Positions 1 through 34,904 of a DNA stretch of 34,904 bases are shown here, piece by piece. The position numbers and the translations under genes are program-made. The stretch's first letter is position 1. Every line of letters begins with the position of its first letter. Origin of the DNA: a virus; the IMG/VR virus record IMGVR_UViG_3300006117_000005, positions 1-34,904 of that record. One strand, written 5' to 3'. The notes below the pieces were generated by a model that did not search any database, was not told where the DNA came from, and saw nothing but the letters and a program-made list of their open reading frames with translations.

Positions 1-100
1 CATACTTAGTGCCCTTTAACTGGCCCTTACCTACCACGCCACCAGTCCAGTTACCCGGGTCACTTCGTAAATTGGTATAACCTGCTTCATGTCCAATCAG
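1..100. repeat. Left copy of the 100-bp terminal duplication (circularisation overlap)
   Basis: CATACTTAGTGCCCTTTAACTGG...CATGTCCAATCAG is identical to 34805-34904. Confidence 0.95.
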
Positions 101-379
101 CCGCTCGAATGCCTGTTCGAAGGTAATCGTGTTATCAGGAAGTGATGCAAAGCCTAAAACGGTTGGTTCTGGATTAAGCTCGGGCTGAGCCTTCTTGCGA
201 CCAATGATGGTGGCCAGTAAAACAAGGATGATAGATACAATGCTTTGATAGGTCGCTGGCAGCACATTTGCATTAGATACTTCCTGCAGAACCAATTGTA
301 AGCAGGATAAAAAAAGCGCCATATAGGCGCCATATTTTACTGAGTCAAATTTCCAGACACTTTCGTTTATTAATTTCAT
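1..379 (-). CDS. Endolysin, 5' part (N-terminal membrane segment plus start of the GH108-like domain). The ORF wraps the junction and continues at 34804..34416, 255 aa in total.
   Basis: ATG is the revcomp of 377-379 and the frame is open down to position 1. 379 nt plus 389 nt gives 768 nt, or 256 codons in one frame. The translation MKLINESVWKFDSVKYGAYMALFLSCLQLVLQ..SIVSIILVLLATIIGRKK..FEQAFERLIGHEAGYTNLRSDPGNWTGG joins the ORF-track peptide VVGKGQLKGTKYGIAANTYP. Confidence 0.8.
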   Translation of the reverse strand, partial: MKLINESVWKFDSVKYGAYMALFLSCLQLVLQEVSNANVLPATYQSIVSIILVLLATIIGRKKAQPELNPEPTVLGFASLPDNTITFEQAFERLIGHEAGYTNLRSDPGNWTGGVVGKGQLKGTKY

Positions 380-392
380 GGTTGATTCTCGT

Positions 393-791
393 TTAATAGG
401 TTAATTTTTTCTGTTGGTCAATTTGATTCCGCATTGCAGCCAGATCTGTATCCATGCGGATCTGTTTAGATTCAGCGATTGCCATTTTTTGATTCAATAG
501 CGCATTATCTTTTTCAAGCGATCTATTGCCTTGAAAGACATACCCACCAAAAGCAACAAGAGCAGCAAGAGCGGTACCTCCAAGCCCTTTTGCAAAGGTA
601 AGGCCGCCCTTGGCCTGGTTCATATCTGCCTGCAGCAAATCAATATCACGTCGGTTTGCTACTGCTTGTGACCGATAATATTCATCGCGTTCTGACAATC
701 GAATCACGTTGTTATTCAGCTCGCCCATTTCTTGCCGGAGTTGATCGAGCTTTTTCTCGACTCTTACTCCATAAGTCTCACTATCAGGCAT
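393..791 (-). CDS. Membrane protein with coiled-coil, single TM, coiled-coil architecture, directly upstream of the endolysin (candidate holin-like or lysis accessory protein)
   Basis: 132-aa ORF. AGGAGG (revcomp of 796-801) lies 4 nt before the ATG. The central hydrophobic segment GLGGTALAALVAFGGYVF is flanked by charged heptad-like segments. The stop is 13 nt before the endolysin ATG. Confidence 0.7.
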   Translation of the reverse strand: MPDSETYGVRVEKKLDQLRQEMGELNNNVIRLSERDEYYRSQAVANRRDIDLLQADMNQAKGGLTFAKGLGGTALAALVAFGGYVFQGNRSLEKDNALLNQKMAIAESKQIRMDTDLAAMRNQIDQQKKLTY

Positions 792-810
792 ATACCCTCC
801 TAATTTTTGG

Positions 811-835
811 CAATAAAAAACCCGCCGAGGCGGGT
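811..835 (-). terminator. Intrinsic terminator upstream of the lysis genes
   Basis: GC stem ACCCGC/GCGGGT (820-825/830-835). On the minus strand it is followed by TTTTTTATTG. On the plus strand a weaker T-run follows (TATGGTTTTT). Confidence 0.7.
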
Positions 836-916
836 TATGGTTTTTAAAACAATTTATAAATGGTATTTTTGTCTCAATACCGCGAATATTCGAATGCTTT
901 TACGCGAGAACATAAA

Positions 917-1294
917 ATGCTAAAGAAGATCTTATTTACAGCCCTCATTTTTAATTCACTTTCGGTTTATGCTGCAAATTATGTAGCTAACTCAGATATC
1001 ACCGACCAAGTAAATTCTGAAATTAAAAAAGCAAAGCCAGGTAAAACTATAAAAATACCCGCAGGGAACTTTAAAGTTAATGCTTTAAAGTCCATCAATC
1101 TTAAAAGCAATATCTCTCTCGAGCTCTCTCCAAAAACTACATTAAACGTGATACCAAATAAACTCGGTAACTATCAGGTATTTAATATAAATAATGTCCA
1201 GAATGTAAGAATTACTGGAGGAACGCTTATTGGTGATAAATATACCCGCCTCGGAAATTCTGGAGAATGGGGCATGGGAATTGCAATAGACTGA
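917..1294 (+). pseudogene. Secreted right-handed beta-helix (pectate-lyase-fold) protein, N-terminal fragment only
   Basis: Signal-peptide-like MLKKILFTALIFNSLSVYA. It is followed by G.TIKIPAGNF, NISLEL, NVQNVRITGGTLIG and GMGIAID, and then stops abruptly after about 125 aa. Beta-helix enzymes are normally several hundred aa. The region is AT-rich. Confidence 0.5.
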
Positions 1295-1602
1295 ACAATA
1301 ACCATCCACTCCTCACCCAAATAAAGATTTTGAATTAAAACATAAAAAATTAAAGCAAATATAAAATTCTGTGCGAAATTGACTCCTACTCTCTTGCTGC
1401 AAAGAATATAGGCTAGCGAAAAAAAGCCTATATGAGCAATTAATAATGGAACGCGAAGGAATGCGAAAGCAGGTATGCTTATGATTAAAATTATAAAAAT
1501 AGAGGTCAGTATAAATGCACTTATCCCAAATAGCCTTCTTAAGTCAATAGTCATTTTCTTAAAGTATAGATTAGGTGCGAAATATGGTACACAAAAAAAC
1601 AT
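1174..1602 (-). CDS. Multi-pass membrane protein ORF, probably truncated; its 3' part is antisense to the beta-helix fragment
   Basis: Three clear TM helices (FGISAFILTSIFIILIISIPAFAF, VPLLIAHIGFFSLAYILC, FAQNFIFALIFYVLIQNLYL). Candidate starts are at 1602 and 1554, and neither has a strong RBS. The last ~40 codons overlap 917..1294 on the other strand. Confidence 0.4.
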   Translation of the reverse strand: MFFCVPYFAPNLYFKKMTIDLRRLFGISAFILTSIFIILIISIPAFAFLRVPLLIAHIGFFSLAYILCSKRVGVNFAQNFIFALIFYVLIQNLYLGEEWMVIVQSIAIPMPHSPEFPRRVYLSPISVPPVILTFWTLFILNT

Positions 1603-1634
1603 CTTTGCTCTATGACTTGATATATTAATTAAAC

Positions 1635-1662
1635 AGGCTTTGCCCTGATAAGGGCAAAGCCT
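1635..1662 (-). terminator. 11-bp perfect hairpin after the tailspike gene
   Basis: AGGCTTTGCCC-TGATAA-GGGCAAAGCCT. The U-tract is weak (GTTTAATTAA) on the minus strand. Confidence 0.55.
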
Positions 1663-1678
1663 TTCTGCTGTAAACAAG

Positions 1679-3889
1679 TTACTTTGCGACTTTTTGCTTA
1701 ACAAAAATCGTGGCACTTATTAGTGCTTGCGGGCAGGTCAAAACAACTTGCAACTCCTGACCAACAGAAGGATTGATCTGTAATGATGCTGTAATTTGCA
1801 CAGCATCTGTAGTATCTGAAATCCCTTGCCCTGTGGATCGGCTAGCAAATATTTTATGAATTGAATATCGACTAGGTACGCGGGTTGATGCTTTATATAC
1901 ATTCGCTAATGCCTTAACGATATATGTTGATGTTTGACCAGACACATCGCAACGGCCCACGATATCTAGTTCAACTATACCGCTTGCGCTTGCATCAAAG
2001 TTGCCCCAGATTGTAAAGGCAGCTGGCGAACTCGCTGCAATTGCACCTGTTTCAATCTGAAACTCACGCTCAAATGATCCGCGCTCACTACTTTTTGGCT
2101 GGTGCCAAAAATCTCTGGAGACAACACGAACCCCATTAGGAGCCGGGTTATTCACTGAGAATCCAAGTCCTAGATACAAAGCGCCTGCAACCGGCATTTC
2201 AGGAAAGGCTGCAAGTACGTTATCAGCATAACCGATACCGCGGTCACGCATAACGTATCGACCACGCCACTCCTTGGGCGACTGCTTCATGATTACTTTA
2301 TCCTCAGTAAATCCATTACCAAAGAATCTGTTTTCATAACCATCATTGTAAACATGAAGCGTAACATCTTCTGCAAAGCTATGCGAAACTGTATTTAACT
2401 GGTTCGATCCGGAAAAAATAATCGCAGTGCTTACTGTTAAATCTGCTGGCACCCAACTAGGGAAAGGGAAAGGGTTTGTGCTGCTTGGCATTGATTCAGC
2501 ATGCCACGCTACAAGATTATTAGAGTCACCACAACTATCCCAAAAGCCAACATGAGAACGTGCGGACCGGATTCGAGTGAATACATTTCGATTATTATTG
2601 GAATCACCACGACCTTGAGTCACCTTCCACCAGTATGATGCACGCAAATCTGTATCAATCTGACACCGTGAAAAATGAATGTCACTGAAGTTACAGTAAT
2701 GATTTCCACCAGTAGCCAGCATTAAAATACCAGTACCACAACGGTCGATCGACAATCCCACAAAATTTGACTTATGCACTGCACTTAGATTGCTGGTTGC
2801 TGTAAATGCTCTGGCATAATCCTGCCCTAGGTATATGCCAACTGCACTATCTGCAATCGTCATATATTTAATATTGGTGTATGGAGAATGAACAGAAAAA
2901 CATGCTTCTGTTAAATTTGCTTCATCAGACTCTTGGGTTGTGGAGACTCCATCCGTAGTCATTATTCTTGTAGCTGGTCGAATATCATTACGCTTAAAAC
3001 ATGATTTAACCCCGTCACCATAAACCCGGACACCTGTACCGGCACTACCAACATTGTAGGGCGTTGTATTTTGTGGCAGCTTCACCAAGTCGCTAAGAAC
3101 ATACGTTCCTTTAGGTGTATAAATATTTTGTGCGTTAAGAACCGCATGCTGTGTAGCAAACCAGTCAATTGATTGGCTAAGTGACTTAACGAATGGGAAT
3201 TTAGTTTGTATTTCAGCTAAGTTTGCAAACTTTCCACTGTCCACCCACTCTTGCAGGGTGTGTAGCGTGCCATCGCCAATCGCGCCAAAATCTTTGATCG
3301 AAACCTGTTCTGTGATCTTGTCATACAAAACACGATTGATCGAGATTGATAAAGGATCAAAATGAAAAGCTAGATTTTCATTTAAAAATTTTTGACTGCC
3401 TTTTGATGTCTGGATAAGAGCGTCAGTCCACCCATTCGCACCGGCTCCAGCCGCGGCAGCTATGTCAATAGTTTGCTGGAATTCAGCCAGTTTTTCACTA
3501 CCTGTGTTCTCAAAGTCTTCTAATGCAGCCGCTTTTTCATTCTGAAAATCACTTATATTTTTCTGAAAGTCAGTATTGAACTGATCAAGCTTTTCGATAA
3601 TTGGCCCTAAATCAAGAATGTTGGATACATTGTTTTTGTCTTCAATTAGAACGCCATCTCGACTAAATACCTGAAAGCGATATGTGCCATCTAGAAAAAT
3701 ATCTGCTTTACCTGTTTCATCCAAAACTACTGGATTTGTATTAGGCGTGCTCATGAAAGCATCGGTATATGTGGTCTTTGGTGTAAGACTATTCCCCTCA
3801 TATGAGAAAACTTTACCCCCAATCAGCGGCTTTCCGCACTTGTCAGTAAAAGTTGCGCGCAGACCGTACAGCGGATTTGCTAATGCCAT
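1679..3889 (-). CDS. Tailspike with beta-helix polysaccharide depolymerase domain
   Basis: 736 aa. The N-terminal ~90 aa are paralogous to the 3957..4850 product. The VSIKDFGAIGDGTLHT motif is typical of pectate-lyase-3-like tailspikes. RBS GGAG precedes the ATG. Confidence 0.8.
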   Translation of the reverse strand: MALANPLYGLRATFTDKCGKPLIGGKVFSYEGNSLTPKTTYTDAFMSTPNTNPVVLDETGKADIFLDGTYRFQVFSRDGVLIEDKNNVSNILDLGPIIEKLDQFNTDFQKNISDFQNEKAAALEDFENTGSEKLAEFQQTIDIAAAAGAGANGWTDALIQTSKGSQKFLNENLAFHFDPLSISINRVLYDKITEQVSIKDFGAIGDGTLHTLQEWVDSGKFANLAEIQTKFPFVKSLSQSIDWFATQHAVLNAQNIYTPKGTYVLSDLVKLPQNTTPYNVGSAGTGVRVYGDGVKSCFKRNDIRPATRIMTTDGVSTTQESDEANLTEACFSVHSPYTNIKYMTIADSAVGIYLGQDYARAFTATSNLSAVHKSNFVGLSIDRCGTGILMLATGGNHYCNFSDIHFSRCQIDTDLRASYWWKVTQGRGDSNNNRNVFTRIRSARSHVGFWDSCGDSNNLVAWHAESMPSSTNPFPFPSWVPADLTVSTAIIFSGSNQLNTVSHSFAEDVTLHVYNDGYENRFFGNGFTEDKVIMKQSPKEWRGRYVMRDRGIGYADNVLAAFPEMPVAGALYLGLGFSVNNPAPNGVRVVSRDFWHQPKSSERGSFEREFQIETGAIAASSPAAFTIWGNFDASASGIVELDIVGRCDVSGQTSTYIVKALANVYKASTRVPSRYSIHKIFASRSTGQGISDTTDAVQITASLQINPSVGQELQVVLTCPQALISATIFVKQKVAK

Positions 3890-3901
3890 TTATTTTCTCC
3901 A

Positions 3902-3926
3902 ATAAAAAACCCGCACAAAGGCGGGC
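3902..3926 (-). terminator. Intrinsic terminator between the fibre and spike genes
   Basis: Minus strand reads GCCCGC-CTTTGT-GCGGGT followed by TTTTTTATTGGAG. Confidence 0.7.
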
Positions 3927-3956
3927 CAGTAGGTCATTAAGTTTTAAAATTTTTTT

Positions 3957-4850
3957 CTAGCGGAATACAACAACCCCGGCATATAGCGGATCGTAATTTC
4001 CTGTGGTGTTGTCGCCCCCATACGATGCAGAGAGTTCAAAACCTGTCTTTGTCTGAGCAACCATATTTAATGAAGCTGCATCACTACGTGCAGTGGTCGA
4101 TGGAGTTATAAGATAGTCTGCATCTGGCATTGCTTTTTCAAAAACAACTTCATATCGCCCTACCCCAATTCGAGTTACAGACTTGATGTTTCCAGAAGCT
4201 CGGATAGCACCGGTCAGGCCGTTGAAATTAACCCATGCTCGAGCAGCATAAATTGGAGCTTCACCACTTCCTAGATCGGATTTAGCCAGCTTTTCTGTTG
4301 CCAGCTTTTTCCCCATTTTTGCGGTTAATGCTTCTGCTTCGCTGTCACTGGTTAATGTATTGTTTAGTTTGACCGCTCCTTTGGTGGCTAAAGTAGCATC
4401 GGGGAGCTGTGTCGCATCTATTAGAGATTCTTCACTCAATCCCGGTAAACCACCCGGCTGATCTTTTTGACCATCAATTACACTGGTCGTTACAATCTCA
4501 AGAGTCTCTTTAACATTTTTCAGCTCATCTAAACCGTCTTTAATATCGTCTTCGAACTCATTAAGCTCGGTTAGCGTGACATAGCGTGAGATCTTGTTTG
4601 TATCAACGATAAGCACACCGTCTTTATTAAAGACTTGGACTCGATAAGCACCATCGTCAGCATAGATTTTTGCCCGGCCTGCCTGATCCAGAATAACCGG
4701 ATTTGTATTGGGTGCTTTGCCGTCGGGATCAGCATAGGTAATCTTTGGGGTAGTGGTATTTGCTTCATAAGTAAACACCTTGCCACCTGCCAATGGTTTG
4801 CCATTGCGATCTTCGAACTGGCATACTACGTTTGTAAGAAGTGGGTACAT
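3957..4850 (-). CDS. Tail fibre protein that shares its N-terminal anchor with the tailspike
   Basis: Start refined to MYPLLTNV (ATG revcomp of 4848-4850) with GAGG 6 nt upstream. It has the fibre-repeat-like segment ATKGAVKLNNTLTSDSEAEALTAKMGKKL and a C-terminal ARAWVNFNG..GRYEVVF domain seen in phage fibres (from memory). Confidence 0.75.
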   Translation of the reverse strand: MYPLLTNVVCQFEDRNGKPLAGGKVFTYEANTTTPKITYADPDGKAPNTNPVILDQAGRAKIYADDGAYRVQVFNKDGVLIVDTNKISRYVTLTELNEFEDDIKDGLDELKNVKETLEIVTTSVIDGQKDQPGGLPGLSEESLIDATQLPDATLATKGAVKLNNTLTSDSEAEALTAKMGKKLATEKLAKSDLGSGEAPIYAARAWVNFNGLTGAIRASGNIKSVTRIGVGRYEVVFEKAMPDADYLITPSTTARSDAASLNMVAQTKTGFELSASYGGDNTTGNYDPLYAGVVVFR

Positions 4851-4862
4851 TGTGACCTCACA

Positions 4863-4885
4863 ATAAAAAACCGCCATTGGCGGTT
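4863..4885 (-). terminator. Intrinsic terminator immediately upstream of the fibre gene
   Basis: Minus strand reads AACCGCC-AAT-GGCGGTT followed by TTTTTTATTG. Confidence 0.65.
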
Positions 4886-4928
4886 GTGCGATTTAGTGAA
4901 TTAAATAATAAGAAGTCAGGAGGATTCT

Positions 4929-5234
4929 ATGTATCAGATTTTTGGAAGCATCTTAGGTATTCTACTTTCAGCCCTTGCAATTGCAGTTTTTGCTTATATT
5001 GTTATTTTTATGTTTAACAATATTGGTGGCATCTTTGCTGTTATTGCTGGAATTGCATTCCTTTATCTGGCATGGAAGGGCCTTGCTTATCTAATGAGAT
5101 CCGGATTTAACGTATATGCTAATCGAGAACAGCATATAAGAGCATTTAGCCAGATGGATAAGGGCTCAAAGATATGCTTGATCTCAATTGCATTTTTCTT
5201 GCTTGCAGCGGCTATTGCTGGTCTTTTAAGTTAG
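4929..5234 (+). CDS. Three-TM membrane protein on the opposite strand to the surrounding late genes (moron; candidate superinfection-exclusion or conversion protein)
   Basis: 101 aa. AGGAGG lies 5 nt before the ATG. There are three hydrophobic helices. It overlaps the 3' end of 5212..7908 convergently by 23 nt. Confidence 0.75.
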   Translation: MYQIFGSILGILLSALAIAVFAYIVIFMFNNIGGIFAVIAGIAFLYLAWKGLAYLMRSGFNVYANREQHIRAFSQMDKGSKICLISIAFFLLAAAIAGLLS

Positions 5235-7908
5235 CACCACCAAGCAAGCCCGCCTTCATCAAACGATCAACTATTGACTGCTCAGCTTGAGTTACAGGTT
5301 GTTGAGCTGCATTACCCGCAAGACTTGGGCGCATTGCTTTGTTCACTGCAGTACTATCAATAATGTCCTTAACAGGTGCCAACACCATACGAACCCCCGG
5401 CTTGTTGATCACTCCACCCAAGAAATTCATCAATGCTGCAGATGTATTTGAGTTGTTCACATAAGAGTGTGGCGGTTGAGTCACTAGATAGTGGCCTGCT
5501 CTGCCAATATCTTTAATGTGTCGCAATTCATCAGGACTAAACATTGTCGATAATCTTCGATCACCTATCGAATCCAGTGCTCGCTTCATACCAGCAGGAC
5601 TAAATTGACCACTTTGATTTACGGCTTTATTGGAAATAAATTGCAGAACCTGTTGCTTAATATCAGCCACGGCTTGTGGGTTGATATTTCGCAGAGTTGA
5701 AACGGTCTGGTCCAACTCGTTTACATTACCATTCAAAATATGCTTGCTGAATAACTTGTCTGGCTCAACACCTTTCAAAGCATCCTGAATTAAAGGCATT
5801 TTTTCAATCTGCTGAGCATTGAATTGATGGGCTTGTCGAGCGAACTGATAGGCCTGTGCTGCGTCATTGCCAGAATTCAGTAATCCAGACATAGCTTCAC
5901 GCTGTCTGTCGACAATTGATTCGCGAACAATACCTAACGCTCTGGTTGCGCTTGTGGGTTGTCCCATTTGCAAAGATGACTTGTAATGATCATTCAGTAT
6001 CTTGATTAGCTCTTCACTTTTCTTGAGTGTGAAAAGTTCAGGGTTTTGACCAATTTGGGTTACTTTCTTTGCCACATCTGGCGGCAACGATGACATTAGG
6101 GCGGCATCATCAAGCTTGGTAAACACATCATTTGCAAGACCTGCACCATTAATCACAACATCATTACCCGGTGCATTTCGTGCCGCGTTATAAGCAGCAC
6201 CAATATATGCCTTATTTTGTGATTGTTGGTCTAGTAAAGCATCCGCTGCATTCTTCACCGCCCCATACTGATCTGTAGCTCGACCACCTGTTTTTAAAAT
6301 AGCTTCATCAAGAAGGTTAGCAATCTGCGAATTGTCACTTATAAACTTCTCGCGCAACTGATCGCCTGCACCACTAATTTTGGCAAGTTCAGCCTCTTTT
6401 TGCCAGAGTTTTGCATCGCCAGTAATTTGAGCTTGAGTGCCTTTAATACCTAATCGATCTAGCACGGCTTTACGCGCAACAGCTTCAGGATTTAAGTTTT
6501 TACCAGATCGTAATGCCTTTTGAGCATCTTGGCGCAGTCCGTTTGCAACCTCGTCAGATAAATCACCTAAACGCATGCCTTGGGATTTAAGCGCATCATC
6601 CAGCTTGTCATCGATACTTGCTAAAATTTGTGTCTGAATGCGCGGGTCAAATGATTTGGCTTTTTGTGCAAGCTTGGCAATTCCTTCACCGGCTTTTTGG
6701 CCTATTCCAGCGCCAATTGCACCGCCAGTCGCGCCAGCAACCATACTTTTTACACGCTCAGCATTATTCTCATGAATGCCTGTTGCACCTATCAAGCCAC
6801 CTAATGCTGCATTACGAGCCAAAAACTCCCGACCTGCAGCAGAGCTTAATGCAGTACCAGCCTTAAGTGTACCGCCTGTAGCTGCCAAAGGTGTTGTAAG
6901 AGCAATATTGGTTCCAAGTCGCACAACATCCATGCCCTGTTTATTGCCTTCACGAACTGTATTGTGAGCATCATTTGCTTCTTTAAGGCCCTTTGTTACG
7001 CGCTCATAAGAATTGGTATCAAGATTGGTGCCAGCTACTGCATTAACACCAGCACTGACCTTATCGCCAAGCCATGAGAAGCCCTGTACTACAGGCGCGC
7101 CGATGTCAGCCATCCCCAACAAGCCAGATTCCCAGAATTGTGTCGGACCCTGTTTTTTAAGTTGCTCTCGATAAACCTTTTGTTGAGCCTCTTTTGATAA
7201 ATCAGGTGGTGTGTAGTTTGCTTGCTTTTGCGCGCGAAAGAGCTGGTGCAGATCATTCACTGAGCCCATTTTCCCGCCAGATGCAGTTTTCCGAGCTTGT
7301 GGCATAGGTGCTGTATCCCTTAAATGTGGCGGTATATCAGATGCAAATCCGGGTCGAAGTTGTCGCCCTGTGAAGTTGGCTTGCATGGCTCTCGGTTGAT
7401 TGGAACTCATAAGCTGATGAAGGTCATTCATCGTAGCCTTGGTAGGCTGGGAGTTTCCTAAAAATCGATTAACGTCATTCCATGAGCGTTTATTTTGCGC
7501 ATATGGTGAGCTTGGTAGAGAGGCCCATTCTTTACCAAGCTTCTGTATAGCGGCTTGATAATTGCCATTTAACACATCATTTAAGGCCCCACGCTCCGCA
7601 ATAAGTGCAACAGCACCTAAGTCTTGATTCCGTGGTGAGAAATCGTTTAATTTGTATCGTTTCGCTAGACTATTCCATGTTCCATTTAGAAATTGATAGC
7701 GCCCCGCTGCGGTAGTCACATTTGTTTTGCCATCAGTCTGACGGAACTGTTTTTTAATATTTGGATGTTGGCTTAAGTTGTTAATTCGCTCATTGCCAAA
7801 AAGTGTGTTGTATCCATGTTTTACATCCTCGGTTGTGGCAATTAAGTCAAGCATCTTGCGCACATTTGGGACTTGTACTGCTTGTTCAATCTGTTGACGT
7901 GTTGCCAT
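5212..7908 (-). CDS. Internal virion/ejection protein with an N-terminal lambda-R-type lytic transglycosylase (GH104-like) domain
   Basis: 898 aa. Residues ~15-140 align by eye with lambda R: TTED vs SEGT, HGYNTLFG vs HGYDVIVG, AAGRYQFL vs GAGRYQLL, DFSPRNQD vs DFSPKSQD, ERGAL, WASLP. The rest is long and Ala/Gln-rich helical. Confidence 0.8.
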   Translation of the reverse strand: MATRQQIEQAVQVPNVRKMLDLIATTEDVKHGYNTLFGNERINNLSQHPNIKKQFRQTDGKTNVTTAAGRYQFLNGTWNSLAKRYKLNDFSPRNQDLGAVALIAERGALNDVLNGNYQAAIQKLGKEWASLPSSPYAQNKRSWNDVNRFLGNSQPTKATMNDLHQLMSSNQPRAMQANFTGRQLRPGFASDIPPHLRDTAPMPQARKTASGGKMGSVNDLHQLFRAQKQANYTPPDLSKEAQQKVYREQLKKQGPTQFWESGLLGMADIGAPVVQGFSWLGDKVSAGVNAVAGTNLDTNSYERVTKGLKEANDAHNTVREGNKQGMDVVRLGTNIALTTPLAATGGTLKAGTALSSAAGREFLARNAALGGLIGATGIHENNAERVKSMVAGATGGAIGAGIGQKAGEGIAKLAQKAKSFDPRIQTQILASIDDKLDDALKSQGMRLGDLSDEVANGLRQDAQKALRSGKNLNPEAVARKAVLDRLGIKGTQAQITGDAKLWQKEAELAKISGAGDQLREKFISDNSQIANLLDEAILKTGGRATDQYGAVKNAADALLDQQSQNKAYIGAAYNAARNAPGNDVVINGAGLANDVFTKLDDAALMSSLPPDVAKKVTQIGQNPELFTLKKSEELIKILNDHYKSSLQMGQPTSATRALGIVRESIVDRQREAMSGLLNSGNDAAQAYQFARQAHQFNAQQIEKMPLIQDALKGVEPDKLFSKHILNGNVNELDQTVSTLRNINPQAVADIKQQVLQFISNKAVNQSGQFSPAGMKRALDSIGDRRLSTMFSPDELRHIKDIGRAGHYLVTQPPHSYVNNSNTSAALMNFLGGVINKPGVRMVLAPVKDIIDSTAVNKAMRPSLAGNAAQQPVTQAEQSIVDRLMKAGLLGGANLKDQQ

Positions 7909-7916
7909 ATTTTCAC

Positions 7917-9299
7917 CTATCGAATTGTTCCACCCGAACTACGAACTGCTTCAGTAATCTCTTGTACCGTTCGGCCTGACTGCTGTGCGTATTCACGAAT
8001 CATTGCTTGTGTGTAAATTTTCCCGGTGACTGGTGCACCTTGAGATTGAGTATTTAAAGAAATGCTGCCGCCACGCGTTGCATAATTCATGGCCTGTTTT
8101 TTTGCATTTTGAGCTACAGTGTTCATTTGTTGCGAAAGACTGGCTAAGCGCCGAGCCATTTCTTGCTGACTAATACCTGGCTTGAGATTTTCCACCGCTG
8201 CTGCAATTTTCTCACCTTCGGCGTTGGATAACGCGCCCATGCCCTGCATAGCTTTAACTGTTGGCAAGAATACTTGCGCTTTAAGGTTTTCAAGCTGAGA
8301 TTGAAATTCATAAGCATCTGTACCCGGGACCATGCCAGATAAACTGGTTAGTCCTGTGCCCATGCCAATGCCCGGATGATTAATTAAATCAGCTGCGGTT
8401 TTAGAAGCTCGCGCAGCTTGTCGCGCCCCATCTGCCGCCGCAAGCGCATTATTAACCCGCTCAATTTTTTGCTCCGGTTTTTCGCCCTTTACTGCCTGAC
8501 TTTCAAGTTTTTGTTTCATTAATTGGAAGTCTTGGTCTGAGTAAAAGTGAGCATCCTTCTGCTGGAAATCGGCCCAGAACTGATCTTTATTTTGATCAAG
8601 CGCATCGTACTTATATTGAGTGTCTACACCCAGCTGATCATATTTATATTCACGATCCGCATCTGCAATTGACTGGTTAATGTCCTGCCCACGCATTGCG
8701 GTTTCATTATCCAGCCGATTGTCTGCTGAGGTGTACATCAAGCTTGCTGGGTCTTTGGCATTTGCAAATACAAGGCCGCTGGCGAATTGTTTTAATGCTG
8801 CTGGATCGGTACCTAAAATATCAATTTGTTTGCTGTATTGATCATAAAGCTCAGGGGTAACCCCACCTGCCTTATATGCATTATTTAAGGCAAGTTTTAC
8901 CGCCATTGGATCGCCGGTTTGAGCACCTATCATCAGCGCCCGGTCAGCATTGGCCATGAGTTTTCCAGAGTTATCCAGATTGTAGCCGCCAGCTTGGGCG
9001 TTATTTTTTGATGCTTCACTTGAGATTTTAGATATTTCAGCTTCTGTTTTTAGTTGATCGTAAAGCTGTTTTTGCTTGGCTTGTTCGTCAGCTCTGATCT
9101 GTGCGTTTAGTTCCCGGCTAAACATTGAGTTATTTGCATAAGCTTTACGTTCTTCCGGATTTTCGATTTGCATCATTTTTCCGGCTTGACGACCTGAAAG
9201 AAGTTGCCTTAAAGCCAGTCCAAACTCTAAACCCTTCTGCGCCCCACCCAAAAGATCTGGCTGTTGCTGGCCCATCAAAATAATTTCTGGATTAAGCAT
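7917..9299 (-). CDS. Internal virion/ejection protein (predicted from position and composition)
   Basis: 460 aa, Gln/Ala-rich and helical, lying between two other ejection-type genes. Confidence 0.6.
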   Translation of the reverse strand: MLNPEIILMGQQQPDLLGGAQKGLEFGLALRQLLSGRQAGKMMQIENPEERKAYANNSMFSRELNAQIRADEQAKQKQLYDQLKTEAEISKISSEASKNNAQAGGYNLDNSGKLMANADRALMIGAQTGDPMAVKLALNNAYKAGGVTPELYDQYSKQIDILGTDPAALKQFASGLVFANAKDPASLMYTSADNRLDNETAMRGQDINQSIADADREYKYDQLGVDTQYKYDALDQNKDQFWADFQQKDAHFYSDQDFQLMKQKLESQAVKGEKPEQKIERVNNALAAADGARQAARASKTAADLINHPGIGMGTGLTSLSGMVPGTDAYEFQSQLENLKAQVFLPTVKAMQGMGALSNAEGEKIAAAVENLKPGISQQEMARRLASLSQQMNTVAQNAKKQAMNYATRGGSISLNTQSQGAPVTGKIYTQAMIREYAQQSGRTVQEITEAVRSSGGTIR

Positions 9300-21872: not shown

Positions 21873-21956
21873 TTATTTCCCAAATATTCCGAGCAACACC
21901 ATTGCAAGCATGAATATCGCTATGATTAATACTGTGGCCTTATCTTCACTGTTCAT
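21873..21956 (-). CDS. 27-aa single-TM micro-protein
   Basis: MNSEDKATVLIIAIFMLAMVLLGIFGK. Its ATG overlaps the upstream stop (TGATG). Confidence 0.4.
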   Translation of the reverse strand: MNSEDKATVLIIAIFMLAMVLLGIFGK

Positions 21957-22111
21957 CACCTGCCCTCCCATCTGCGACTCTTGCGACCTTTAAATTCCTT
22001 TTCACTGCTTTTACGAATCCTCCAAGCCACAACAGCTACCACAAGTGAAGAGACCAAGCTTATGATTAGAAAGCCACTTAAAACCCATGCTAAAAACTCA
22101 AAACCATCCAT
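21956..22111 (-). CDS. 51-aa single-TM protein with a basic C-terminus
   Basis: MDGFEFLAWVLSGFLIISLVSSLVVAVVAWRIRKSSEKEFKGRKSRRWEGR, with a G-rich RBS GGGGTGGGA. Confidence 0.5.
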   Translation of the reverse strand: MDGFEFLAWVLSGFLIISLVSSLVVAVVAWRIRKSSEKEFKGRKSRRWEGR

Positions 22112-32415: not shown

Positions 32416-32636
32416 TGGGTATTGCATTTGATCTGACATATACCGAGCGCCGAATCTCAACAAGCGAGTTTGCTCTCCGTATGAATATATCCGAGAAAGA
32501 ACTTTATGCTCGGATTAACGATGGGCGTATACAGCAACCTTATAAAGATGGCCGAAAAAACTACTGGCTAAACAGCTATGTTTTGGAGTGTATTCTAAAA
32601 ACAGAAGGTGGTAATATAGGTTCGCTAAATGCATAA
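32415..32636 (+). CDS. xis: Excisionase-like / AlpA-type HTH protein
   Basis: 73 aa with ISTSEFALRMNISEKELYARINDGRIQQPYKDGRKNYW. It is the last gene before the attP-like region and int. Confidence 0.5.
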   Translation: MGIAFDLTYTERRISTSEFALRMNISEKELYARINDGRIQQPYKDGRKNYWLNSYVLECILKTEGGNIGSLNA

Positions 32637-32654
32637 AATAAGAAAAAAGAAACT

Positions 32655-32678
32655 GGTCGCATTTAGCGGCCTTTTTTT
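32655..32678 (+). terminator. Terminator of the early-left operon
   Basis: GGTCGC-ATTTA-GCGGCC followed by T7. Confidence 0.75.
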
Positions 32679-32679
32679 C

Positions 32680-32957
32680 ACAACAAAATTAATTGTGAGT
32701 AAGATAGTGAGTAAGAAGGTAATCTCTACAATAATTATTATTTAAATACACCTACTTACATGCACGATGTTGAATTGCATCCATACACAACATTCATATT
32801 ACCTTGTATTACCTTATCTTTATTTTTGTTTTATCTTACTGATTTTTCAATACTATTATTCTTACTGTGCCTAACCTTTTCTTGAATGACATTACTTTTA
32901 TTTGTGAGTAATATTGTGAGTAAGGGCTTTTAATTCATTACGGACGTTACTCACACC
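32680..32957. other. attP-like region: AT-rich with clustered arm-type repeats
   Basis: GTGAGTAA(G/T) occurs at 32695-32703, 32707-32715, 32904-32912 and 32916-32924, and inverted at 32947-32954. ATTACCTT occurs twice (32798-32805, 32808-32815) and inverted as AAGGTAAT at 32716-32723. Confidence 0.55.
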
Positions 32958-34175
32958 ATGTTAAACGACTTAAAAATCAAGCAGTTAAAACCTAAAGAAA
33001 AAACCTATAGAGTTGCTGACCACTCTGGTTTATGTGTGGAAGTACGTCCAACAGGTAAAAAGTTCTGGCGCTTTCGTTATCGCTTCCTCAATAAACCGCA
33101 AATGCTGACCATTGGGCAGTATCCAGAAATCAGTCTGTCCTATGCCCGAACTAAAACTAATGAGTTCCGGGAGCAACTTGCTAAAAATATTGACCCTGCT
33201 GCAGTTAAGAAAAATGAAAGATTAGAAGCCTTGCAAGCCCAGGAAGAAACTTTTAGATCCATTGCAAAAGAATTCTGTGAACATAAGAAAAACTCGAAGT
33301 CGGAAAACTGGCTGTATATTCGACAGCTATCATACGAAGTAGATATTTTCCCAGTCATCGGAGATAAGCCTATTAAGGATGTTACCTCTGTTGATGTTAA
33401 AAACATTATGGACAATGCGGTCAAACGAGTATTGAAGTCTGGGAAAGGCACTGGTGAGAATAAAGCCATTCTGGTGCGACAAAATATTGCCGAAGTCATG
33501 CAATATGCAATTATTTCGGACAGGCTAACCAACGACCCTACTTATGCATTACGCGGCTACATTCATGCACCTGAAACCGAGAATGCTCAGCCCATCAGCT
33601 CTCATGACCGTAAAAAGATTATGCCAAGCATCAGCAAGTATGACGGTTCAATTAGTACCAGAAATGCACTTAAAGCACTTATCTATACAATGTTGAGAAC
33701 AATTGAAATTCGCAGAGGCTTAAAGTCATATATTGATTTTGATGCTCGCACCTGGACTATTCCGATTGCAACCAGATCAGAAATTTTGGCAGGCAAGCGC
33801 AACATGAAAAAGAACCGAATCCATATTGTGCCTTTATCTGATCAGGTAATAGAGATACTAAAAGTCCAATTTGCTGCCTACCCTGATAGTCCCTATATTT
33901 TCCCCGGGGTAAAAAATGAATCTATGATCGGACCTACAACACTAAATCAGGCATTTCGCAATATGGGATTAGGCCATATCACTATGCATGACTTTAGGGC
34001 CACAGCGTCTACCGATCTAAATGAAGCGAACTACAATTCAAACTGGATTGAGCTGCAGCTTGCTCATGTTAAAGGTGATAAGGTCAAGGCTACATATGAC
34101 CACGCTAAATGGCTGAGTGACCGCCGGAAAATGATGCAAGACTGGGCTGACATGGTCGATGGTTGGGCGAAATAA
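32958..34175 (+). CDS. int: Tyrosine integrase, P4-type (N-terminal DUF4102-like arm-binding domain)
   Basis: 405 aa. LKPKEKTYRVADHSGLCVEVRPTGKKFWRFRYRF N-terminus. The C-terminal MHDFRATAST..LAHV..Y catalytic pattern (R..HxxR..Y) is present. Confidence 0.9.
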   Translation: MLNDLKIKQLKPKEKTYRVADHSGLCVEVRPTGKKFWRFRYRFLNKPQMLTIGQYPEISLSYARTKTNEFREQLAKNIDPAAVKKNERLEALQAQEETFRSIAKEFCEHKKNSKSENWLYIRQLSYEVDIFPVIGDKPIKDVTSVDVKNIMDNAVKRVLKSGKGTGENKAILVRQNIAEVMQYAIISDRLTNDPTYALRGYIHAPETENAQPISSHDRKKIMPSISKYDGSISTRNALKALIYTMLRTIEIRRGLKSYIDFDARTWTIPIATRSEILAGKRNMKKNRIHIVPLSDQVIEILKVQFAAYPDSPYIFPGVKNESMIGPTTLNQAFRNMGLGHITMHDFRATASTDLNEANYNSNWIELQLAHVKGDKVKATYDHAKWLSDRRKMMQDWADMVDGWAK

Positions 34176-34321: not shown

Positions 34322-34336
34322 TCACTGCGCTAAACA

Positions 34337-34388
34337 CTGCACGCACACTGTCACGCTAACATGATTAGAGATTGAGTGTGCTGTGCAG
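34337..34388. repeat. 13-bp inverted repeat (one bulge) with a 25-nt loop, between the convergent int and lysis operons
   Basis: CTGCACGCACACT (34337-34349) pairs with AGTGTGCTGTGCAG (34375-34388). There is no U-tract on either strand. Confidence 0.6.
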
Positions 34389-34415
34389 GCGGAGAGAACC
34401 GCACAAAGCAGAATA

Positions 34416-34904
34416 CTAATTATCCTTAGCTGCATAAACCAGATTATCTGCCACACGCCGAACCCACCCCTTACCGAAAGTTTTAAATGTGGATAAATCT
34501 GTGTAGAACTTTAGACGTTCCGCAGTCAAAGTAAGTAGCACATCATTTAGATCCATAGCGTTTACTGCAGCAATTGTTTTGGGCCCAATGATGCCATCAG
34601 CCGGAACCCCTGCGACTTGTTGCAGTTCTTTAATAGCTCGGCTTTTCCCGGCATTTACCGCAAAATCCCACAGCTGGAAAACAATAGCTGAATGCAGTTG
34701 CTCGGCACCTAATTTTTCCCACCAGTCGCGTCGGTAAATTTCCTTCGCTTCAGCCAGAGTCAGATTCTTAATATCGATATGTGGATAAGTGTTAGCAGCG
34801 ATACCATACTTAGTGCCCTTTAACTGGCCCTTACCTACCACGCCACCAGTCCAGTTACCCGGGTCACTTCGTAAATTGGTATAACCTGCTTCATGTCCAA
34901 TCAG
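34416..34904 (-). CDS. Endolysin, 3' part (GH108-like catalytic domain end plus PG_binding_3-like domain); continues upstream through the junction to the ATG at 379
   Basis: The frame stays open to the window end. The track's M at 34841 is an internal GTG. WWEKLGAEQL, FDFAVNAG and LQQVAGVPADGIIGPKTIAAVNA are present. Confidence 0.8.
   Translation of the reverse strand: MIGHEAGYTNLRSDPGNWTGGVVGKGQLKGTKYGIAANTYPHIDIKNLTLAEAKEIYRRDWWEKLGAEQLHSAIVFQLWDFAVNAGKSRAIKELQQVAGVPADGIIGPKTIAAVNAMDLNDVLLTLTAERLKFYTDLSTFKTFGKGWVRRVADNLVYAAKDN
34805..34904. repeat. Right copy of the 100-bp terminal duplication
   Basis: Identical to 1-100 and lies inside the endolysin reading frame. Confidence 0.95.

Follow-up and report, generated by a model that had tools for sequence, protein, structure and literature searches.

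In models of Gram-negative phage lysis, soluble endolysins stay in the cytoplasm and leave through holin holes, and signal-anchor-release (SAR) endolysins wait in the periplasm and are released by membrane depolarisation. The lysis gene described here lies in a viral sequence of 34,904 nucleotides (IMG/VR record IMGVR_UViG_3300006117_000005, positions 1 to 34,904; "the window" hereafter means this whole stretch). It encodes an endolysin of 255 amino acids (aa), in which a predicted two-helix membrane hairpin of the DUF7940 family precedes a predicted GH108 N-acetylmuramidase. The parts of this protein are known, and a fusion of holin and endolysin has one precedent; the widespread, modular family of DUF7940 fusions and the topological puzzle that it poses are undescribed. 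No published account of a DUF7940–endolysin fusion was found in the open-access literature. The family is large, conserved and recombining, and its enzymes are permanently joined to a holin-type hairpin that is predicted to hold them in the cytoplasm, which raises the question of their route to the cell wall.

Comparison with known lysis systems

The lysis proteins of phage N4 are described in a preprint (10.1101/2025.11.12.688109). N4 gp61 is the founding GH108 enzyme and a SAR endolysin; gp63, a pinholin, combines a long helical N-terminus in the cytoplasm with a transmembrane (TM) segment at its C-terminus; and gp62, called a 'lysis regulator', has two transmembrane domains (TMDs) with both ends in the cytoplasm (10.1101/2025.11.12.688109). 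gp62, which is non-essential for lysis, becomes lethal after treatment with carbonyl cyanide m-chlorophenylhydrazone (CCCP); at late times after induction, it permits the action of the soluble lambda endolysin R as well as that of the SAR endolysin R21 (10.1101/2025.11.12.688109). Fusions, Acinetobacter and the domain of unknown function are not mentioned in the preprint.

The window cassette resembles that of N4 in its order, i.e., a membrane protein whose long helical N-terminus is cytoplasmic (in the window, a 132-aa protein), a two-TMD protein with both ends predicted inside, and a muramidase with GH108 and PG_binding_3 domains. The window hairpin and gp62 also fall in one family. The two cassettes differ in that the gp62 gene overlaps the start of gp61 by 14 nucleotides (nt), whereas the gp62-like module and the muramidase of the window are one polypeptide. 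In addition, the window muramidase has no counterpart of the gp61 SAR domain, no homology was detected between the 132-aa protein and gp63, and no recognisable spanins adjoin the window cassette.

The precedent for a fusion is the TpeE-type holin–endolysin in six Clostridium sporogenes genomes, which a review introduced as 'so far not recognized' and took as an argument that the cargo travels on the holin C-terminus (Microb Cell 2022, PMC9527704). Likened by description rather than by sequence, TpeE and the window protein share a natural N-terminal holin-type membrane module fused to an endolysin (PMC9527704). TpeE belongs to a Gram-positive host, however, and its module consists of one short TM segment and an amphipathic helix, in contrast to the two-TM hairpin of the window. 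Moreover, the TpeE fusion was found in six genomes and with one enzyme type, whereas DUF7940 fusions occur in dozens of species and with six enzyme types.

SAR endolysins (P1 Lyz, phage 21 R, N4 gp61, and Mu gp22 with its releasin gp25; PMC9239132) likewise carry an N-terminal membrane segment and have no soluble form, and their activity depends on the state of the membrane. A SAR domain is one Gly/Ala-rich helix, inserted by Sec with the N-terminus inside and the C-terminus outside, so that the enzyme waits in the periplasm; the window protein has two hydrophobic helices and a C-terminus predicted inside, and its enzyme would wait in the cytoplasm. Another membrane-anchored peptidoglycan hydrolase, M4Lys of Salmonella phage BSPM4, lyses E. 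coli without holin or Sec and requires its own TMD (PMC7143992). Unlike the window hairpin, the M4Lys TMD is single, C-terminal and unrelated, and the catalytic domain is different. The endolysin of Hafnia phage Enc34 reportedly also has a C-terminal TMD.

In a survey of 139 Acinetobacter phages, enzymes with GH108 and PG_binding_3 domains were classed as holin-dependent modular endolysins, TM domains were reported only in GH24 SAR enzymes, and no spanins were found (PMC8878043). Soluble enzymes of this architecture, 171–172 aa in length, are found in other Acinetobacter prophages; they begin at the residue equivalent to 85/86 of the window protein and are 73–77% identical to it from there on, and their genes follow a separate holin-like gene. 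The cultured temperate phage vB_AbaM_ABMM1 encodes a 256-aa 'putative lysin' (WEU68059.1) with the same module as the window protein (37% identity over 80 aa) and an annotated 95-aa holin gene ahead of it, but its catalytic domain is TIGR02594/CHAP-like, not GH108. The membrane module is not mentioned in the ABMM1 paper (PMC10345192).

A DUF7940-type hairpin joined to a GH108 muramidase

The window is the complete, circularly joined genome of a temperate Acinetobacter phage. Positions 1–100 and 34805–34904 match exactly over 100 bases, and the record is listed in IMG/VR as 100% complete, with direct terminal repeats. When the ends are joined on the minus strand (379->1 followed by 34804->34416), a 768-nt open reading frame (ORF) of 255 codons plus stop results, so that the end repeat and the translation bear out the joined frame of the original prediction (Table 1). 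Also as predicted, annotation of the linear window would give fragments only: a 126-aa open-ended piece at the left end and, at the right end, a piece of 141 aa (from GTG) or 162 aa (open).

Table 1. Positions of the lysin gene, its domains and adjoining features in the window
Feature	Position	Strand	Description
Lysin gene, 5' part	1..379	-	Codons 1-126 and first base of codon 127; ATG at 377-379; hairpin, linker and beginning of GH108
GH108 domain, first part	1..106	-	Predicted; residues 92-126; HEAGY with conserved Glu98
Pro-rich linker	125..172	-	Residues 70-85, PEPTVLGFASLPDNTI; predicted disordered; conserved only within the GH108 fusion family
RKK-A-QPELN	173..199	-	Residues 61-69; conserved C-terminal motif of the DUF7940-like module, universal fusion junction
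Helix 2, hydrophobic core	200..244	-	Residues 46-60, SIVSIILVLLATIIG; AlphaFold2 helix 42-64
Helix 1, hydrophobic core	284..334	-	Residues 16-32, YGAYMALFLSCLQLVLQ; AlphaFold2 helix 12-36
Partner gene, 132 aa	393..791	-	Coiled coil, Gly/Ala-rich TM segment, second coiled coil; PHROG 16929 (function unassigned); stop 13 nt before lysin ATG
Terminator-like GC-rich hairpin and T-run	819..836	-	Directly upstream of the two-gene lysis cassette
Lysin gene, 3' part	34416..34804	-	Remainder of codon 127 to codon 255; stop 34416-34418; identical contiguous ORF in L099
PG_binding_3 domain	34452..34637	-	Predicted; residues 183-244
GH108 domain, second part	34647..34804	-	Predicted; residues 127-179
100-bp terminal repeat	34805..34904	.	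Copy of window 1-100; marks the circular join, no additional sequence

All the elements that had been pointed out from the sequence alone, i.e., the hydrophobic stretches GAYMALFLSCLQLVLQ and SIVSIILVLLATIIG, the RKK that follows, QPELNPEP and LIGHEAGY..DPGNWTGG..KYGI, are present in the joined protein. The two enzyme domains proposed with them are recognised by Pfam above the curated cut-offs: Glyco_hydro_108 (PF05838) at residues 92–179 (1.3e-17; 64.6 bits against a cut-off of 21.2) and, C-terminal to it, PG_binding_3 (PF09374) at residues 183–244 (6.6e-9; 36.3 bits against 24.6). In an alignment of 12 homologues, H97, E98, G100, Y101, D107, P108 and G109 are invariant, and HEAGY, with Glu98, aligns with the EGGY motif of 2IS5 and N4 gp61. 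The nearest solved structures, those of NMB1012 (2IS5 and 2IKB; E ~6e-39), cover residues 86–255 only. Residues 86–255 are thus predicted to be a GH108 N-acetylmuramidase with a PG_binding_3 wall-binding domain. The AlphaFold2 model (mean predicted local distance difference test score, 68.6) shows the two helices listed in Table 1, low-confidence disorder at about residues 60–86, and then the enzyme.

Residues 1–79 match PHROG 1356 ('holin') at 7.6e-7. A sister subfamily of 264-aa GH108 lysins matches PHROG 1356 at 1.7e-20 and Pfam DUF7940 (PF25612) at 4e-19, and N4 gp62 matches DUF7940 at 3.5e-13, above cut-off. The link from the window to gp62 needed separate profiles for the window subtype and the canonical DUF7940 subtype: with these, hhalign of the window-type profile against the DUF7940-type profile that includes gp62 gave 97.2% (E 3.3e-11, 75 columns), whereas an 8-row N-terminal profile aligned weakly with the single gp62 sequence (19.7%). 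On this profile evidence, residues 1–69 are assigned as a diverged DUF7940 two-helix membrane hairpin of the same family as N4 gp62. No NCBIfam model matched the module. Scans of Pfam and NCBIfam gave no holin-family match for the hairpin, and S21-type class II holins were not compared by sequence. The build of class II holins (small, two TMDs, both ends predicted inside, a charged tail) fits the free-standing relatives of the module, in which a basic and then acidic tail follows helix 2; in the window protein this charged tail is replaced by the enzyme. The fusion serves as a 'Rosetta stone' for N4 gp62 and other, poorly understood DUF7940 proteins, tying their function to the endolysin.

Free and fused forms of the module

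A profile of eight N-termini, searched against 1.84 billion representative proteins, gave 44 matches. These include free-standing modules of 72–98 aa, which end a few, mostly acidic residues past a conserved [RK]xKxQPELH, and fused forms of 230–280 aa, in which the module stands ahead of other enzymes. Six types of fused partner are recognised: GH108, Amidase_3, CHAP/TIGR02594, GH24 (Phage_lysozyme), GH19 and M15_4 (by Pfam; by NCBIfam for TIGR02594).

In a profile search of 201 Acinetobacter species genomes, the module was present in 52, with 71 copies in all. Fifty of these copies, in 34 genomes, are fused in open frames of ~230 aa or more, so that 17% of the sampled species genomes have a fused copy. 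For domain assignment by Pfam, 49 long and 11 short frames were extracted. The long frames carry Amidase_3 (22 of 49), CHAP (12), Phage_lysozyme (8), GH108 (4) and Peptidase_M15_4 (2). Nine of the 11 free genes directly precede or overlap an endolysin gene, of GH24 (4), PF11860 (3), GH108 (1) or GH19 (1) type; the module is thus found directly upstream of an endolysin whether it is fused, as in the window, or free. The fusion junction always lies immediately past QPELH, and both module subtypes, that of the window and canonical DUF7940, are paired with each common enzyme type. This constancy of the junction and the free pairing of subtypes and enzymes indicate repeated recombination or fusion at QPELH.

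How fusion could come about is illustrated by free forms. One of these (P0128) is a 78-aa module, 72% identical to the first 80 residues of the window protein, and its gene is flanked by a 189-aa gene on one side and, on the other, by a GH19 endolysin gene that overlaps it out of frame. In a DNA alignment with locus L094, homology to the window spans the module and ends at QPELH, where the out-of-frame GH19 gene begins. A single frameshift at such an overlap of module and GH19 gene would produce a fusion.

Several genomes (G124, G063, G105 and G132) have three to five module copies each, mostly with different hydrolase types, which implies that they carry several prophages with a lysin of this kind; two copies are present in A. 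johnsonii CIP 64.6. Full-length matches to the window lysin among species-representative genomes come from Acinetobacter (A. johnsonii CIP 64.6 and several Acinetobacter sp.), apart from one in a metagenome-assembled genome labelled Candidatus Gastranaerophilales (L015), which is read as a mis-binned phage contig. Among the phage records inspected, which did not amount to a systematic survey, no fusions were seen outside Acinetobacter, and Xanthomonas, Pseudomonas and Escherichia phages keep two genes. Acinetobacter phages are of interest for therapy, their lysis cassettes have no recognisable spanins, and the fusion is frequent in the genus.

Predicted topology of the hairpin and proposed mechanism of release

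Averaged over 115 full-length GH108 homologues, the N-terminal tail has a net charge of +1.3, the loop between the helices one of -1.3, and the five-residue segment past helix 2 one of +3.0. The window protein has three Lys/Arg residues in the N-terminal tail, none in the loop and three after helix 2, and the trend runs in the same direction across 89 modules of all types, for which a cruder automatic segmentation was used. Because basic RKK follows helix 2 and the loop is acidic or neutral, the positive-inside rule predicts a hairpin with the N-terminus inside, the loop outside and the C-terminus inside, i.e., with the muramidase on the cytoplasmic side. This agrees with the prediction of the N4 authors for gp62.

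The favoured interpretation, held with moderate confidence, is that the window gene is a single natural gene and a translational fusion of two lysis functions, a gp62-like hairpin and a GH108 muramidase, and that the enzyme is delivered through hairpin lesions triggered by depolarisation. In this mechanism, the hairpin would insert with both ends inside, and the muramidase would build up harmlessly at the inner membrane, on its cytoplasmic side. As infection draws to its end, the 132-aa membrane protein encoded upstream would collapse the membrane potential and thereby set the time of lysis. Depolarisation would trigger the DUF7940 hairpins to form or join lesions, where the attached enzyme would reach the peptidoglycan, possibly with proteolytic release near the junction.

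Several points weigh against this interpretation. The window N-terminus has no direct match to Pfam DUF7940 (PF25612) at E<=0.1, so that its membership of the family draws on profile–profile and PHROG evidence. Only the positive-inside rule and hydrophobicity enter the topology prediction. A triggerable lethal or hole-forming activity has been reported for N4 gp62 and for no fused member; gp62 is itself non-essential, and weakly or late holin-like, according to data from a preprint. Homology between the 132-aa protein and N4 gp63 was considered and rejected (hhalign, 11%), leaving a likeness of architecture only. The linkers of some Amidase_3 fusions are very short, with ~8 residues before the enzyme, which clouds how a tethered enzyme reaches the peptidoglycan. 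Furthermore, the hairpin need not form holes, because a separate holin-like gene lies upstream of nearly every fusion.

The last point would allow a passive role for the hairpin, which would merely anchor the enzyme at the cytoplasmic face, either to keep it near a real holin or to guard against premature action, while the upstream protein makes the holes. At 19 of the 20 fused loci examined, another small, holin-like membrane-protein gene directly abuts the lysin start, and these genes belong to several families; such an arrangement suits a system of two components as well as it does a tether. At locus L095, a free DUF7940 gene is preceded by a recognised Phage_holin_3_2 gene and followed by that of a PF11860 muramidase. 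In ABMM1, it is the gene upstream that is annotated as the holin, and N4 gp62 is dispensable for lysis. A mere tether is nevertheless rather unlikely: gp62 alone kills after depolarisation and releases soluble endolysin, several phages have a DUF7940 protein as the sole holin candidate in a cassette of endolysin and spanins, and residues of the loop and the QPELH end are strictly conserved, which points to a role beyond that of a greasy anchor.

Alternatively, the hairpin may be a self-contained delivery device that, once the membrane is de-energised, carries the attached folded hydrolase across, either as the lining of a lesion or through a flip of its C-terminus. This is offered as a speculative possibility, with doubts similar to those about the tether. 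If true, it would constitute a third route of endolysin export beside those of holin-released soluble enzymes and Sec-inserted SAR enzymes. The module would then be an N-terminal 'export cassette' exchangeable among at least six hydrolase families, and free 'lysis regulators' of the gp62 type would act on the endolysin, not on the pinholin.

The original prediction had offered, beside a holin-sized module fused in frame, a SAR-like signal anchor. The first part of this pair has gained support from the PHROG 1356 and DUF7940 profile matches and from the 78-aa free gene; the second has fared poorly. As a SAR endolysin, the protein would use its N-terminus as a Sec export signal, and a tethered periplasmic muramidase would be freed on depolarisation, as for N4 gp61 and P1 Lyz. 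It is in keeping with this that gp61, the founding GH108 enzyme, is such a protein, that the enzyme always has a membrane segment when there is no internal start, and that window helix 1 is just moderately hydrophobic (Kyte–Doolittle maximum over 19 residues, 1.38, against 1.98 for helix 2). A SAR domain, however, is a single, weakly hydrophobic and Gly/Ala-rich N-terminal TMD, whereas the window protein has two helices with Gly plus Ala contents of 18% and 13%, compared with 50% in the gp61 SAR domain. The hydrophobicity of helix 2 is high (2.76 over 15 residues), and in most homologues both helices reach 2.0–2.5 on this 15-residue measure. In addition, the basic residues C-terminal to helix 2 and the acidic loop are predicted to put the catalytic domain in the cytoplasm rather than the periplasm, and the module is homologous to free-standing proteins without an enzyme. 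Together these features make a SAR endolysin improbable.

Integrity of the reading frame

The 255-aa frame is found uninterrupted outside the window. An identical ORF lies within a 165-kb bacterial contig, L099 (2749–3516; GCA_023127715.1, JAATPH010000006.1), and a frame 98% identical in a 91-kb contig, L100. A collection of 5.8 billion proteins holds more than 100 clusters of full-length homologues, of 253–270 aa and down to 59% identity. The hairpin codons 1–64 evolve under purifying selection: in close pairs, the ratio of nonsynonymous to synonymous substitution rates (dN/dS) is 0.03 (window and L100), 0.05 (window and L006) and 0.12 (L014 and L015), and across the fusion junction it stays below 0.15.

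Canonical in-frame starts (ATG, GTG or TTG) occur at codons 1, 20, 29 and 39, and the next is at codon 115, past HEAGY (97–101). The earlier claim that no start lies between helix 2 and the catalytic motif is thus correct and, because no such codon occurs between codons 39 and 115, a soluble muramidase cannot be made from a canonical start.

In the NCBI annotation of L099, the lysin is a 171-aa protein (P0058) that begins 'MTFEQ', its start being an ATT codon (Ile85) taken as Met. The 274 nt on its 5' side are left unannotated, yet they encode the intact, in-frame hairpin. The 171-aa entry reflects a choice made in annotating the intact 255-aa frame, not a second gene, and truncation of this sort looks systematic for the gene family. 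Because public annotation truncates the gene or labels it as a plain lysin, enzyme mining would miss the membrane module or express an insoluble protein.

Separate genes do exist in relatives. In A. seifertii NIPH 973, the soluble GH108 gene is preceded by a homologue of the 132-aa protein and by an unrelated 74-aa two-TM gene that overlaps the lysin start, and its A. bereziniae counterpart follows a 123/137-aa gene with four TM segments. The comparison with related prophages that had been suggested for a separate two-TM gene and a GH108 gene therefore gives a divided answer: two-gene prophages are found, but their membrane proteins are different from the window hairpin. Since the position of the window N-terminus is filled in these varied relatives, it appears to be a slot for small membrane lysis proteins. 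The stop or frameshift near codon 75 of close homologues that would have pointed to two genes was not seen, and the frame is intact even at the near-identical locus annotated with 171 aa. Two short database proteins, P0004 and P0115, were considered as two-gene evidence and rejected, both being frameshifted copies. In-frame N-terminal extensions of two phage matches (H1 and H2, from IME-Ap7 and IW-1; tblastn) were spurious, with stops on translation, and megablast of window 1–8000 against phage records gave no match.

Thus, although some relatives have two-gene layouts with overlapping stop and start codons and some database entries are truncated or frameshifted (P0004, P0058 and P0115), it is hardly credible that a sequencing or assembly error, or wrong joining of the ends, made one gene out of adjacent small holin and lysin genes, given that the frame is open in independent assemblies (L099, L100, L006–L011 and L014–L018), the architecture is common to the clusters above, dN/dS is low over the junction and the 171-aa entry stems from how an open frame was annotated.

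Upstream partner gene and surroundings

The 132-aa protein encoded directly upstream of the lysin is a candidate timing holin or pinholin analogue, as judged by analogy of its architecture and position. Homologues in PHROG 16929 stand upstream of several fused lysins and also of the unfused GH108 gene in A. seifertii. In Pfam, the protein matched neither DUF2730 (releasin) nor any holin family.

Beyond the terminator-like hairpin upstream of the cassette, a second one is present at 1662–1635 on the minus strand. Between the two hairpins, a plus-strand ORF of 144 aa (860–1294) begins like a signal peptide and resembles tail-spike beta-helix PHROGs, which it matches; it is overlapped by an antisense ORF of 180 aa (1174–1716) that has four TM segments and no family match. 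In relatives, acyltransferase or lipase morons occupy this place between tail fibre and lysis genes.

Downstream, the lysin stop is overlapped by an ORF at 34322–34456 on the minus strand with a lipoprotein-like signal, MQLRIISILLCAVLSAC..., which was considered as an o-spanin. This candidate was rejected: the ORF is probably no gene, because only the near-identical L099 shares it, and it is missing past the lysin of L100, which is 98% identical. A DUF6527 (PF20137) gene of ~98–101 aa directly follows the fused lysin in L006 (4773–5069), L008 (4773–5069) and L012 (960–1265), and is absent from the window.

The integrase gene lies at 32958–34175, with a 322-bp non-coding stretch (32636–32958) upstream of it. 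The attachment site is probably in this stretch and not between integrase and lysin, because these two genes stay adjacent and convergent in the chromosomal contigs of relatives. No tRNA-type attachment site was found near the integrase, and the window contains no tRNA.

Two further small membrane-protein ORFs occur in the window. One of 101 aa (4929–5234, plus strand) contains three helices of strong hydrophobicity, is encoded on the other strand from the late genes around it, and could be a moron or a superinfection-exclusion membrane protein. The other, of 51 aa (21956–22111, minus strand), has one N-terminal TM segment and a very basic C-terminal tail, RIRKSSEKEFKGRKSRRWEGR.

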